Assembly (NCBI GenBank): GCA_951406725.2
Contig: OX597825.1
Location: 16,120,001-16,184,000, forward strand
DNA length: 64,000 bases
Reading direction: 5' to 3'
Origin: Octopus vulgaris
Taxonomy: Eukaryota
Positions 24,499 to 49,875 of the stretch are shown here, piece after piece. Numbering within the stretch: the first letter of the stretch is position 1; the number at the start of each line of letters is the position of its first letter. The translations under genes were made by a program, and so were the position numbers. Below the pieces are notes generated by a model. That model did no database searches and was not told where the DNA came from. It saw only the letters and a list, made by a program, of their open reading frames with translations.

Positions 24499-24559
24499 GA
24501 TAAAACTCCGAGTTTCGGATGTCGGGGCGGAAACCCACGCCGTCATCTCATCAGTTATC
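24499..24559 (-). ncRNA. Type I hammerhead ribozyme
   Basis: Minus strand: gataa CTGATGA GATG...CATCC GAAA CTCGGAG TT ttatc; 5-bp stem I; GUU triplet. Confidence 0.8.
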
Positions 24560-24586
24560 CGGCCATCGGAAATTTTCTAAGGGCTG

Positions 24587-24647
24587 GATAACTGAAGATT
24601 TGACGGCGTGGGTTTACGCCCCAACATCTGAAACTCAGAGTTTTATC
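24587..24647 (+). ncRNA. Type I hammerhead ribozyme, inverted partner of 24499-24559
   Basis: gataa CTGAAGA tttg...catct GAAA CTCAGAG TT ttatc; base of stem II partly mutated. Confidence 0.7.
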
Positions 24648-25051
24648 ATGGCTACTGAATAATTGTTACATATATATATATAAATAACTTGATTGTGCAA
24701 CCCTGCACTCATCAGTTATAATCAATTATGGTGACTGCTCTCTATGTTGGGAGTGAAAAGACACATTTAATATATAAATATATATATAAGTATATGTGTG
24801 TGCGTGTATAAGTGCCCTGTATGAAATTCTCTTGAGTCTTTCCATAACTTCTGCTGATTAAAAATAAGAAAATGTAATTACGTTTATGTTTTGAGTTCTA
24901 TCTATCCTGTTTATACCACTGAGCCTATATATATATATTTATTTATATATAAGTTCAGCAAAAATTTAGATTCAAATGAATATGGTACTTAATTTAGATG
25001 CACCAGAATTTTTTATGGTGTTATCCATAAAAGTTTGTTGGGTGATTATAA

Positions 25052-25152
25052 TCAAAATAAGCAACAAGAATGACTCCGGTAATTTGGTACAATCATTGTA
25101 GTACGAAACGATTGTACCAAATTACCGGAGTCATTCTTGTCGCTTATTTTGA
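25052..25152. repeat. Near-perfect 43-bp-arm inverted repeat next to (TA)n
   Basis: tcaaaataagcaacaagaatgactccggtaatttggtacaatc / gattgtaccaaattaccggagtcattcttgtcgcttattttga. Confidence 0.85.
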
Positions 25153-44400: not shown

Positions 44401-44576
44401 TATATATATATATATATATATATATATATATATATATATATATATATATATATATATATATATATATATATATATATATATATATATATATATATATATA
44501 TATATATATATATATATATATATATATATATATATATATATATATATATGATATGATATGTATATATATATGTATA

Positions 44577-44897
44577 TAATTAATAGAAAAAACCTCTATT
44601 AAGCAATTCAATAGTGAAAGACATTATCTATACCATATAGAAAAAATTTATATATACTATGATAATCAATAAATTAAATCAATAATAATCAATAAAGAAA
44701 ATCAATAAATTAAATAAACATTAAATTGACATTAAATTTTTTCTATATATTATAGATAATATCTTTCACTATTGAATTGCTTAATAGAGGTTATTTCTCT
44801 TAATTACATAGATATATTATATATTGTGAAATTTGATTTAGAATTACTAAATTGAATTTTTCCCTGTAAGTTTGGAATTATATTCCCTACTATTATG
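44577..44897. mobile_element. (TA)n-flanked AT-rich fold-back element
   Basis: aacctctattaagcaattcaatagtgaaaga (~44591) is inverted at ~44762-44792. Confidence 0.7.
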
Positions 44898-47800
44898 TAT
44901 GTATGTATATATATATATATATATATATATACACACACACACACATATATTCACTCATATGTATTTATATATGATGTTACTTGTGAGATGTCTGGGATTT
45001 TAAGTTTTTAAGTTTCTCCATAATCACTTGTTTAACTAGATTGATTGGACAAATCATTAATTTAAAGCACTCAGAGTTCTAATTCTTAGTGTGTATAGAA
45101 TCCCACCATCAGTAAATTACGCTTTTTTTAAAGATTCTACAAGCTGATTAACAATATGAAATGATATAGATATATGTATATATATATATTATATGTATAT
45201 ATGCATTTATATGTAAATATGTGTGTGTATGTGTATATATATATATATGTGTGTATATATATGTACACACACTCACATATATATATGTGTGTATATATAT
45301 GTATGTATATATATATGTATATATATATATATATATATATATATATATATATATATATATATATATATATATATATATATATATACACATACATGATCGT
45401 GTCTGAAAATTACAATGGTTATTGTCATAATATTTCAAATATTTTACTTTCATCATTAATTTCTTTCTCTTTTTTTTTTTTTCAAAATCTTTCATCCAAT
45501 TAACTTTTCTAACTTAATCAATAATTTCAGTTTTGCAAAAAAAAAAAAAACAACACAAAATCAGCTTTTGAAATTTTGAAATTTTAAACCAAAAGTAAAA
45601 AAATAGCATGAAAATAAAATATAATTTTCATCTCTGAGTTATAAACACACACAAACACACATACACACACTTATACATAAAATCTAGGCTCAAGTGTATA
45701 ATAGATATTTGCTTATGCACACAAACATATATATATGTATGATATATTTATTTTAAAGAAGTTTGACTGTTACTTCAAAATTTTGCCAAAAAAGGCTTAT
45801 CTAATAATGTTTTACTCTATATCATGTGTTGAGTTCTTTCTTCCGTTAATGCTTGTTCTTCATTAATCATTATGGAACCATTATTAAAATTTTTATATAA
45901 CACAACGTTAAATGATGATGATATGCTTTCACACAAACATAAAATATATATGCTTGTACATAATATATATAGTGTATCTAGTACACACGGTAAGATGATC
46001 CATTGTGGTTCAGCATCCAGTTGCACTAGGAATATCCAATGCAGAGTTCCAAATGACCACAAAGGTGAAACATATGTAGGGAAGAAATTATGTACACTTG
46101 TGCTTATCATAATTTCTCCTGTGTATATATATTTATATTTGTGTATGCGTATGTGTGTGTATACATGTGTGTATATATGTGTGTGTGTGACAACAGCATT
46201 GGGGCTTTTTACAATTGTTTATATATGCATATAACTTTTTAAAAAGAAACAATATATAGGCTATATCACGCATACATATATATATGTGTATATTTTCATG
46301 CATATCTATCTACTCACATATGGTGCAGATATATGTTTTTTTTTAGATATCATCTTATATCAATGATTACATTTAGGTGATGAGATATGAGTGTTGGTTT
46401 AGGATTCTTTTTTCTTTTTTTTTTTTTTTTGCAGTAGTTTAACCAGAGGGGAAATCACAGGGCTCAAGTAACACTTTTAATGTCTCTGAGTTTCATGAAA
46501 GGAATGCGGGACATTATCATCAGATGAAAAAAGCATTGACAGAATGATTGTAGCAGTCTGAGCTCTGCTACAACAGCCAAAAGCCAGGTAGTGGTGGTGG
46601 TGGTGGTGGAGGTAGTAGTGTAAAATAGTTGATATTTTCTTTATAAACAATTTGCTTTGGTAAAGATTTGTAAACAATACAATTTTTTTTTTTAAATTGT
46701 TAATCTTATTATATTGTTTATGAATATTCACTCACTGTTATATTCTTGTTATTATTATTCATAATAATAATAATAATGATAACTATAATAATGTGTATAT
46801 AAATATTCATATGTGTGTATGCATGTATATATAATATATATATCTATATATACATGCACATATTCAAATATTTGTGTGTGTGGTGTGTATATACATATGT
46901 ATGTATGTGTATATATATATATATATATATATATATATATATATATATATATATATATATTTCAATGCAGACAAATAGCGACACGTACATAAAAATTACT
47001 ACGCAGATATATACAAATATTTGTATGTATGTATGAGTGTGTGTATATATCATATATATATATATGTATATGTGTGTGTGTATACACATAAATATACATA
47101 TATATATGCATACATAAACACACACACATGCATATATATATATATATATATATATATATATATACATATGTATGTATGTAGGTATGTATAAAACTATGAA
47201 ATACTTTGTATGCATACACAAATACTCACATTTCACATCTGTCTTATCTATTAAGCTGTTACATTGTTGATGAACAGTTATATACACCCTATGAACTGTT
47301 CATTGCAAGGCGAAACATTTTCTGCCATATTGATTAATCTTATTAAAGACAAAGACGAAAACAAATTAAAAATTTTGAAAGAAGCCATGTTTGAAAAAAA
47401 AAGCATAAATAAAATAAATAAAAACAAAATTTTAAAAAGTAGAGGGTGTGGTGGAATAATGAATTTCAATGTATGCGTGTATGTGTATATTTTGCATGTA
47501 TGTGTGTGTGTGTGTATGTGTGTGTGTGTGTGTGTGTGTGTGTGTCCCATTCAATGAATGCTTCTTTGATGTGAATCTTGAAGTAATGGAAACATAGTCA
47601 ACAACTTTTAACAATGTGTGTGTGTGTATATCTATACATATATATATATATATAACTTTCTTACAGATCATTATTACCGCAGGGCAAAATTCACACACAC
47701 ACATATGATGTATATATAAATGTGTTTGTGTGTGTATACAAATTTATATACATATGTATATATATATATATATCTGTATATATATATATATATATATATC

Positions 47801-48786
47801 TGTATATGCATATATATATATATATATATCTGTATATGCATGTATATATATACCTGTATATGCATGTATATATATATATATATGTATATATATATAAATA
47901 TATATGCATGTGCATATATATATGTATTGGTATATATATATGCACGTAAGCATATATACACATATATATACATAAATATGTGCATTGAAGACAAGACACA
48001 ACTGTGTTCAGATTTTATCTAATCTGTTTTTATGAAAGATTTTTTCATACACTTCCTTCTTTGTCCTTTAAATTTAGTTTTGGAACAAAAACTGTTTCCA
48101 ATTCCATTCAAGTTTCAAGACTTTCTGGCTGAAAAACAATGGTATTGGTGCATTTCTGCCACATTTTGTAGCCGGCATCAAAGAGCCATGGCAAATACTT
48201 TGAAACTGATAAGATATTTGAATGTGTGTATATGTGTCTCTCTCTCCATCTGTGTGTGTGTGTATATATATACTTATATATATATATATATATATATATG
48301 TATGTATATGTATGTATGTATGTATGTATGTATATATATATATATATATGTGGGGAGCAGTTTTGGTTTATACATGTTTCATTAAACATGTGGCTATGTT
48401 CGAATTTTCTGTTTTCTTTTAGATTTTTCATATTTTCTTATTACCTTTTTACTGTTTCGTTCTGGACATTACAGTTCCTAAATTCATATCTGATGAAGAA
48501 AAAAAATATATGTGGTAAGTTTTTGGAAGATGCTCTGAGCCTTTTCTAGAAACGGTGGATATAGATTTAGGAACTCTACCTATTCCAAACCAACAGTTAA
48601 AAAACCTTATAACAAAAGATGGAAAATCTAAAATACAATGATATAACTTAGTTGTTTATTTAATGAAACATATATATATATATATATATATATATATATA
48701 CATATATATATACACATACATATATATATGTATATATATATATATATATATATATATATATATATATATATATATATATATATATA

Positions 48787-49875
48787 TAAAAATACAGTGT
48801 ACATTTAAACACATAAGTGGTATCCATCATAGGATTCCTTTCATGCTTGAAGGAACAGCTAAAGTCCAAACCACTATTAGGGACTATAGCTGTCCCTATG
48901 ATGGATACCTCTTATGTGTTTAAATGTACACTGTATTTATATGAATAATATATGGTCCATTGACAAATTTTTCTACACGCTAGGCCACAGGTAGTAAAGA
49001 TTTCTAAAATCTTTATTACCCTGATATTATTAATTATAAATATATATATATAGATAAATACAGATTTGGCCGGTTTGGGCTTACCCTGGGTTTCACGACC
49101 ATAAAGCTCATAGCTTTACAGCATTTCTTCTGACCCTAAACTTGTTGGGTTTATGGCCGTAAAACCCAGGGTACCCCCATAAACTGGACATATCTATCTT
49201 TATCTATATACTCTACTAATCTATATTTAGACTGTGCTTCATTTTGGGATTTATGATTTACTAACGATATACATATATGTATGTATGTATATGTATATAT
49301 ATGTGTGTGTGTATATATATATATATATATATATGTATATATATATATATATATATTTATATATACATATATATATATACATATATATATATATATAAAA
49401 ATACAGTGTACATTTAAGCACATAAGTGTGTTTCCATCATAGATTCCTTTCATGCTTGAAGCTGAACAAGACAGGAAGTCCAAACCACTATAACTATAGC
49501 TGTCCCTATGATGGATACCTGATGTGTTTAAATGTACACTGTATTTATATGAATAATATATGGTCCATTGACAAATTTTTCTACACACGCTAGGCCACCG
49601 GTAGGAAAAATTTCTAAAATCTTTATTACCCTGATATTCATCATCTAGTTAGATATAGATTTGGTAGTTTGGGCTTAGTTCTGGGTTTCACGACCATAAA
49701 GCTCATAGCTTTACAGCATTTCTTCAGACCCTAAACTTGTTGGCTTTATGGCCGTGAAACCCAGGGATATCCCATAAACTTTTTGGATCATATCCTCCAT
49801 CTTTATCTATATCATTCTACTACTCTATAACCTTAGACTGTCAACATATTGGGATTTATGATTTACTAACGATAT
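48787..49875 (+). repeat. ~600-bp tandem duplication of two adjacent fold-back elements
   Basis: 48787-49027 ~ 49397-49637 and 49063-49270 ~ 49658-49875; each unit is internally palindromic. Confidence 0.85.

Follow-up and report, generated by a model that had tools for sequence, protein, structure and literature searches.

Odd palindromic stem III segments of Penelope-type hammerhead motifs in Octopus vulgaris probably favour strand-swapped pairing

A 64,000-nucleotide stretch of the Octopus vulgaris genome (GCA_951406725.2, contig OX597825.1, positions 16,120,001 to 16,184,000, forward strand; hereafter the window) contains hammerhead-like motifs in which the segment between GAAA and UH is a 7-nt palindrome with a single central base. 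Do such segments mean that these ribozymes are obligate dimers, each family recognising its partner by its own code, as an earlier note proposed? We think it probable that they are type I hammerheads, which Hydra-clade Penelope-like elements (PLEs) likely carry as 3'-end ribozymes, and that the palindrome favours, but likely does not require, a strand-swapped double hammerhead.

All six 7-mers on which that proposal was built read as claimed at their positions, each after GAAA or a decayed GAAA, but the hammerhead context holds for only some of them. The full core (CUGANGA, GAAA and UH) is present at 24506-12(-) and 24634-40(+) and incomplete at the other four: AAAA replaces GAAA at 44306, the core at 49084(-) reads CAGAAGA, 32963(-) is truncated and lacks CUGANGA, and 49760(+) lacks UH because AT comes after its inverted 3' half. 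The sites represent four repeat families, not six independent cases, and are mostly arms of inverted, 5'-truncated pairs. Three sites had been overlooked: 24280-86(-), CTC-A-GAG with an intact core; 33126-32(+), CTA-T-TAG; and 44204-10(-), CCTGAAG, with the pair broken. The core test (CUGANGA/GAAA/UH) was passed at 24554(-), 24328(-), 24592(+), 33055(+; one extra A), 2885 and 3857, and failed at 32963, 44306, 49084 and 49760. When stems were sought around the core, with the ends joined in stem I, a stem I of 3-5 bp and a closed stem II were found at 24554, 24328, 33055, 2885 and 3857; 24592 failed the stem II filter, and 24506-12 is the only one of the two full-core cited sites to pass. A stricter descriptor missed family A because of a bulge at the stem II base. 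The Rfam hammerhead model was absent from the 150 of 191 matches listed for the window and from the 19 for 24240-24700, and the matches listed were only microsatellite-driven miRNA; a repeat finder run on the window was swamped by microsatellites.

The best-preserved copy is the family A hammerhead at 24499..24559(-), which has a 5-bp stem I, CUGAUGA from 24554, stem II, GAAA at 24516-13 and CUC-G-GAG at 24512-06, with a predicted cut between 24504 and 24503. The inverted partner arm, 24587..24647(+), is identical to the minus copy at 89/101 positions and has an intact core, a decayed stem II base and CUC-A-GAG at 24634-40. These 5'-truncated ends form a head-to-head inverted pair (24470..24680) whose read-through RNA is predicted to fold into a single long hairpin (-142 to -153 kcal/mol), and in thousands of contigs family A homology ends at 24572-74. 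The overlooked hammerhead, 24274..24332(-), has an intact core and CUC-A-GAG at 24286-80, and its core at 24328 lies on the same strand as 24554(-), 226 nt downstream of it.

In family D, the left arm (32926..33027, minus) is truncated before the core, so it keeps GAAA CUG-U-CAG UA (32969-63) without CUGANGA, and the right arm (33052..33137, plus) has CUGAAGA at 33055, a long stem II, GAAAA, CUA-U-UAG at 33126-32 and UA; the 3' half of this right arm equals that of Hydra Penelope-1_HM, save one extra A. The two arms are 84/105 identical, and their CTG-T-CAG and CTA-T-TAG differ by a compensatory double change, a single case which we left out of the covariation argument. The family B left arm (44200..44245, minus) has the core CUGUCAA (two changes) and CCUGAAG at 44210-04, with one pair broken; the right arm (44271..44316, plus) has CUGACGA at 44273, CAAAA with G12 lost, CUU-G-AAG at 44306-12 and UA. 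Family C copy 1 (49077..49136, minus) has the core CAGAAGA (U4 changed), GAAA, CCC-A-GGG at 49090-84 and UA. Copy 2 (49672..49731, minus), a local tandem duplicate identical to the copy 1 region at 312/374 positions, has an intact core at 49727 and a broken palindrome (CCCAGAAC), and an inverted partial copy of the 3' half (49743..49766, plus) comprises a stem II arm, GAAA and CCCAGGG, then AT, and is no hammerhead. Among the even palindromes also cited, TCACGTGA (2923) and CAGCTG (3922) do lie in intact motifs: 2880..2937(+), with the 8-nt UCACGUGA, an intact core and a 5-bp stem I, and 3853..3933(+), with the 6-nt CAGCUG, an intact core and a long stem II. ACGT (52445-48) belongs to a minimal hammerhead (A-CG-U; 52439..52476, minus) with one core change, CUGUCGA, but CTGCAG (9111) has no upstream core.

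Form and context support the suggestion that these are Penelope-type hammerheads, and the likely source of the motifs is Penelope-type elements, mostly as broken copies left behind. A 3' hammerhead with a 7-nt stem III segment is present in families A-D, as it is in 19/25 Hydra-clade Penelope families in File S2 of Craig et al. 2021 (PMC8557442). Families A, B and D have inverted arms, with TA runs next to one or both arms in each family (judged by eye) and family A truncated at 24572-74. Metagenome relatives are located just downstream of Hydra-type endonuclease ends, a CxxC..E..N..CxH end lying upstream in 20/81 matches (judged by eye). One relative's protein, P0003, carries RWK, DKT, YRDD and CxCX5C, which mark the Hydra clade. 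The window itself yielded no PLE protein by tblastn with seven Hydra-type proteins at E<=1, no PLE-like ORF by eye among its 134 ORFs of at least 90 aa, and no ORF with the Hydra-clade combination of RWK, DKT, RT core, CxCX5C linker and GIY-YIG with CxxC and CxH. The Hydra-clade assignment of families A-D therefore rests on form and context, which make it likely. Pfam reported RT or GIY-YIG above cut-off in 0 of 94 upstream peptides (one unrelated match) and 0 of 3 full proteins, and Hydra consensuses had no match to short sequences taken from families A, C and D. A link between the loose ends of family A and Hydra-1_oBim was rejected, the upstream match being just 9 bases and too short to count. 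Non-LTR retrozymes share type I hammerheads, a palindromic loop III, faster cleavage as dimers and a PLE link (PMC7229834; bioRxiv 10.64898/2026.07.22.740005), but they form tandem arrays with a ribozyme per unit, whereas the window has dispersed inverted pairs. Tandem units that each hold an intact hammerhead were not found in the window, where only family C is duplicated and both its motifs are broken.

The odd class is not new: its form has been published, as have the idea of dimers and the inverted arrangement. Hydra-clade Penelope elements, as presented by Craig et al. (PMC8557442), resemble the window in their 7-nt stem III, (TA)n targets and inverted 5'-truncated copies, although the window copies are decayed and without an ORF. 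File S2 draws 16/25 families with a 4-pair stem III and a 1-base loop (e.g., ACTC-G-GAGT, ACTC-A-GAGT, ACTA-T-TAGT and ACTT-N-AAGT, with ACCA-A-TGGT in an octopus family) and gives 3/25 Hydra families a 3-base loop, with U-U at 3/5 in two of these; its passages on these motifs neither discuss dimers nor test covariation. The metazoan PLE min-HHRs of Cervera and De la Pena 2014 (PMC4209133) share the palindromic helix III, the dimer model and opposite-strand pairs 100-700 bp apart, but the odd 7-mer occurs in only 1/56 aligned motifs and most segments are 2 nt and unable to close. In Fig S3 of that paper, a Hydra CU-AUU-AG motif is drawn with its stem closed by a 3-base loop. Small PLE hammerheads cut as dimers according to Lunse et al. 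(RNA Biol), who may already cover odd palindromes.

What the metagenome relatives add is covariation, which the earlier note had claimed and which holds. Leaving positions 2-6 free, 71/81 hammerhead-like matches were fully palindromic, compared to 11/120 chance matches in a viral-contig scan that gave 0/120 hammerhead-like sequences and served as the chance control. Matches had to be 7 nt long with C/G ends by design of the search pattern, and the 19 clusters treated as independent are not entirely so; across them, pair 2/6 is Watson-Crick in 19/19 (1 of 100,000 permutations) and the innermost pair, 3/5, in 18/19, with all four pair types (permutation mean 5.5; 0 of 100,000). Taking worst-case cluster members, pair 3/5 still holds in 15/19 (1 of 100,000). 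The central base is free (T10 C4 A3 G2), a statement that rests on these four letters across clusters, since the G/A difference that separates 24509 from 24637 is inside a CpG and was not counted. In thousands of contigs the family A centre varies between G and A (55% and 11% of depth), and the six paired positions are absent from the 40 differences listed. No metagenome match (0/81) had another matching GAAA-stem III half in its neighbourhood (up to 300 nt away, both strands). Full pairing of the 7-mer needs two strands, as the earlier note stated. Because the innermost pair cannot form in a monomer and yet covaries, strand-swapped pairing of stem III is likely under selection.

Computed energies point the same way. 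At 37 C, the monomer stem III (3 pairs, 3-base loop) comes to +0.4 to +2.1 kcal/mol and the homoduplex to -4.9 to -11.6 kcal/mol. Pairing between two copies is probably preferred, not required. Copies 24554(-) and 24328(-) lie on the same strand, 226 nt apart, and might share a transcript; the remaining pairs either have their copies on opposite strands or are broken. The double hammerhead of this pair lies 12 kcal/mol below two monomers, but still 9 kcal/mol above the free fold, i.e., competing folds are lower in energy.

In the source element, a partial-tandem (pLTR) transcript would carry two copies that swap stem III strands, giving an 8-pair helix with A15.1-U16.1 at both ends and one 1x1 mismatch, and that exchange stem I strands too. 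A single copy could form no more than a marginal 3-pair stem closed by a 3-base loop, and its cleavage would be slow or depend on protein help. With lone copies marginal and paired copies favoured, cleavage would be biased toward tandem transcripts, and partner choice would follow from plain stem I and stem III pairing with no special code. The window copies are likely inert, because their cores are decayed and long hairpins, apparently A-to-I edited, would form in any RNA that reads through them. For family A, the main family, RNA-seq reads run through the cut site and the RNA looks A-to-I edited; two RNA runs of one species that carries the family had no read-end pile-up at the cut site, a result weakened by fragmented cDNA libraries and decayed copies.

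These features could be taken further, to a switch tuned across the clade: the free central mismatch would silence a lone copy in the cell, tandem or trans-paired same-family copies would cut, and hosts would neutralise tens of thousands of these motifs through inverted-pair hairpins and A-to-I editing. We regard this as doubtful; if it were true, cleavage would sense copy arrangement.

Somewhat more doubtful is the original claim of obligate dimers with a family-specific code, in which a lone copy never cuts and distinct palindromes block cross-family cleavage. The 3/5 covariation would be useless in a monomer, the S. mansoni min-HHR monomer did not cleave (PMC4209133), the four window families have different palindromes, and cross-family 9-mer duplexes are computed to be weaker than self pairs (-1 to -6 vs -7 to -14 kcal/mol, 25 C). 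However, A15.1-U16.1, which the claim omitted, together with two further pairs and a 3-base loop, can close in cis, and an axolotl HHR reaches 22% cleavage as a monomer although its stem III has 2 pairs and its stem II has U-U at the base (PMC7229834). The minus-strand hammerhead of avocado sunblotch viroid, ASBVd(-), has the same GAAA-CUCAGAG-U segment (GAAA-CTCAGAG-TC) and 3-pair stem III, and is reported to form a double hammerhead during transcription and to cleave as a single one after purification (PMC4960562, PMC3939467, PMC6466107). It belongs, though, to a viroid RNA replicon and not to a retroelement, and its loop-loop tertiary contacts may be lacking in the window motifs, so its monomer activity may not transfer to them. 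The code lacks support: CTT-N-AAG is common to 6/14 families of the single H. magnipapillata genome, four different palindromes in four draws have P ~0.32, and stem I swapping already supplies specificity.

It is improbable that the ribozymes act as monomers, with dimers irrelevant and the 3/5 complementarity a by-product of loop stacking or palindrome-perfecting mutation. The ASBVd(-) monomer is reported to be more active once non-covalent dimers dissociate (PMC4960562), Penelope-2_HM and 5_HM have U-U at 3/5, and genomic copies are mostly solitary, but all four Watson-Crick types at 3/5 are hard to explain by loop stacking and the stem is unstable by itself. We consider it very unlikely that the palindrome persists because a dimeric protein of the element uses it as a site on DNA or RNA, cleavage being secondary. 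The anole Poseidon HHR cuts only with the element's protein, a predicted dimer, and insertion is unimpaired by catalytic mutants (PMC11167929), which together with the missing read-end pile-up would suit such a site; against it, the sequence changes while pairing is kept, and the palindrome lies exactly between GAAA and UH within a conserved catalytic core. Chance matches in repeat-rich DNA could explain the partial cores at four of six cited sites and the two C-starting matches without hammerhead context (30729 and 36151), but are refuted by the covariation, by an anatomy shared with 81 metagenome loci and with Hydra elements already published, and by the window counts (GAAA, a C-starting 7-nt odd palindrome and TH: 7 observed, shuffle mean 0.31, reached in 0/100 shuffles; 7-nt odd palindromes of any kind: 11 vs 3.47).

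We therefore return to the preferred reading, in which the palindrome favours strand-swapped pairing. Its importance is modest. It contributes a quantitative sign of selection on the strand-swapped helix in Hydra-clade Penelope hammerheads, namely covariation of the innermost pair around a free centre, and it makes the 3/5 pair the single position that by itself would separate monomer from dimer cleavage.

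All six 7-nt odd palindromes (CNN-N-NNG) that the earlier note placed between GAAA and UH were as written there when read back from the sequence. The window has seven instances of GAAA plus a C-starting 7-nt odd palindrome plus TH, versus a mean of 0.31 in block-wise dinucleotide shuffles (n=100, 0/100 reaching seven); without the C condition, the counts are 11 and 3.47. Hammerhead context is absent at two of the seven C-starting matches (30729 and 36151). The six sites do represent four repeat families (A, ~24274-24647; B, ~44200-44316; C, ~49077-49766; D, ~32926-33137), as the description 'unrelated families' implied, but they are not six independent cases. 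CUGANGA, GAAA and UH are all kept at just 2/6 sites; G12 is lost at the family B 7-mer (44306), the family D copy (32963) breaks off before reaching the core, and the family C 7-mers have a core reading CAGAAGA (49084) or an inverted 3' half and then AT (49760).

A structural scan of the window gave five intact-core motifs, with cores starting at 24554(-) and 24328(-) in family A, 33055(+) in family D, and 2885(+) and 3857(+), both with even palindromes. In the 24328 copy, stem I and the core are spanned by a short inverted repeat (24322-24352), which looks like the remainder of a partner arm with its ribozyme deleted. There is also a further decayed core at 24690-24720(-), with CUGAUGA and a GUGCA/UGCAC hairpin and without GAAA, and a minimal-hammerhead-like motif with one core change within a dispersed repeat at 15880-15906(+).

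Covariation was assessed with a metagenome pattern modelled on family D (core and 7-nt segment, C and G ends fixed, positions 2-6 free), which gave at least 123 matches. Of the 123 listed, 81 have a stem I of at least three pairs and a closed stem II, and the palindrome is full in 71 of these hammerhead-like matches, with one pair broken or wobbled in the other 10. Among the 42 rejected matches listed, it is full in 18, half in 14 and absent in 10, while in a control on viral contigs, searched with a less strict pattern, 0/120 matches were hammerhead-like and 11/120 palindromic. The 81 matches, clustered on masked flanks, form 19 clusters, and these bore out the covariation expected in the earlier note: among the matches listed, pair 2/6 is Watson-Crick in 19/19 clusters (permutation mean 10.3; 1/100,000) and the innermost pair 3/5, represented by all four pair types, in 18/19 (mean 5.5; 0/100,000) and still in 15/19 in the worst case, when a broken member was taken wherever present (1/100,000), although these permutation figures are not exact probabilities because clusters share ancestry. 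The centre base, by comparison, is free (T, C, A or G across clusters from the matches listed). It also varies within family A (A makes up 55% and 11% of depth), where none of the 40 differences listed falls on a paired position, an invariance that is uninformative on pairing. Six matches (L141, L143, L147, L176, L222 and L223) share a recurring motif in which core and stem II lack a neighbouring stem I and CTTACAG is not palindromic; this motif is possibly another hammerhead type.

Among the matches listed, 20/81 loci encode a peptide that ends in CxLCxxEK...LN...CRH directly upstream of the metagenome motif and on its strand (25 pattern matches, five dropped by eye). One matches the end of a 717-aa protein at 100% identity; that protein carries RWK, DKT, YRDD, CxCX5C, CxxC and CxH, which section 11 of PMC8557442 gives as marks of the Hydra clade within Penelope-like elements (PLEs). 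A Pfam search of 94 upstream peptides and three full proteins recognised no PLE endonuclease/RT marks. File S2 of the same paper contains hammerheads of 25 Hydra families, with a 7-nt segment in 19 (four pairs and a 1-base loop in 16 as written, a 3-base loop in three) and 8 nt in six; CTC-G-GAG, CTC-A-GAG and CTA-T-TAG occur both there and in the window, and its octopus family has CCA-A-TGG. The recurrent 7-nt odd class, which the earlier note gave as its own inference, had thus been tabulated in this 2021 supplement. For repeat hammerheads, palindromic stem III and dimer pairing were likewise already in the literature (PMC3088659 Fig S8; PMC6765202; PMC4209133). Fig S3 of Cervera 2014 (PMC4209133), read after realigning a GAAA column displaced in the text, has one odd case in 56, a Hydra element whose drawing shows a 3-base loop. 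From their form and context, we infer that families A-D belong to the Hydra clade of PLEs.

The window is animal-type DNA of putative cephalopod character, 35% GC and dense in microsatellites, with a dispersed short repeat that may resemble an octopus SINE. In families A, B and D, the copies are inverted and paired head to head, with arm identities of 89/101, 72/83 and 84/105 and adjoining TA runs, and family C is a local duplication with both motifs broken. Four public sequencing runs were compared with 24425-24600 for copies of family A, which reaches 7,519 and 4,875 contigs in two contig runs (X1, type unrecorded; X9, DNA by guess). The core across 24550 is CUGAUGA in the window copy and CUGAAGA in 218,052/219,319 of X1 depth. 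Homology to family A ends at 24572-74, beyond which other copies continue into common upstream sequence, so the window copy is 5'-truncated. PLE copies described in PMC8557442 and PMC4209133 share this arrangement, being truncated, inverted and inserted in microsatellites; the ORF list and protein comparison gave no PLE protein or ORF in the 64-kb window. Two metagenome matches (L195 and L196) lie on opposite strands of one contig, ~1.5 kb apart, an inverted arrangement like the window's.

Inversion places the two motifs of a pair on different strands, and RNA reading through the pair is predicted to fold into hairpins (-110 to -153 kcal/mol) in which the motif is buried. In two RNA runs, each sampled to ~6%, 443 and 498 reads align to family A; their depth stays level over the predicted cut site, and no pile-up of read ends was found there. 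An anole PLE likewise gave no such reads, and its ribozyme was found to act with protein help and not to be needed for in vitro insertion (PMC11167929). Within 24484-24556, T>C on the + strand (A>G for the ribozyme strand) makes up 8-22% of RNA reads at seven sites versus at most 0.3% of DNA depth, the DNA and RNA runs having the same species label and coming from different animals, possibly of a species other than the window's. Family A has 23 and 18 T>C places in the RNA runs versus 3 in DNA, and 16 and 14 A>G places versus 3. This pattern looks like A-to-I editing of the inverted-pair hairpins. In the literature surveyed, which is incomplete and does not establish absence, we found neither an account of edited hammerhead pairs nor a covariation test of the innermost pair.

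A family-specific partner code, also suggested earlier, shows no sign of orthogonality: CTT-N-AAG is common to 6/14 H. magnipapillata families (PMC8557442 File S2), CTC-N-GAG recurs in 5/19 metagenome clusters (matches listed), and the probability of four different palindromes in four draws is 0.32. Self duplexes are calculated to be more stable than cross-family duplexes by several kcal/mol because of plain complementarity, and a swapped dimer would have to exchange stem I as well. The 7-mer feature is real; obligacy and the partner code are unsupported.

Since a single base is too short a loop for positions 3 and 5 to pair within an RNA hairpin, the covariation between them points to the swapped helix as what is selected. 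This supports pairing by strand swap, the core of the original proposal, and dimer pairing is likely under selection. The swapped 9-mer duplex is calculated at -4.9 to -11.6 kcal/mol at 37 °C, and for two same-strand A copies, the double hammerhead lies 12 kcal/mol below two single ones and 9 above the free fold (calculated). The dimer need not be obligate, however: A15.1-U16.1, omitted from the proposal, lets each 7-mer close into three pairs around a 3-base loop (calculated at +0.4 to +2.1 kcal/mol), and the avocado sunblotch viroid (ASBVd) minus hammerhead is reported to cleave singly as well. The template of that hammerhead carries GAAA-CTCAGAG-TC (PMC4960562), and reports on the minus strand describe double-hammerhead cleavage while it is transcribed and single-hammerhead cleavage once it is purified (PMC3939467; PMC6466107), though with tertiary contacts that are possibly absent from the window motifs. 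Positions 3/5 are U-U in two Hydra families (PMC8557442 File S2), and an axolotl motif whose stem III has two pairs gave 22% monomer cleavage and cleaved better as a dimer (PMC7229834). The 7-mer motifs are probably best read as facultative ribozymes favoured by tandem arrangement.
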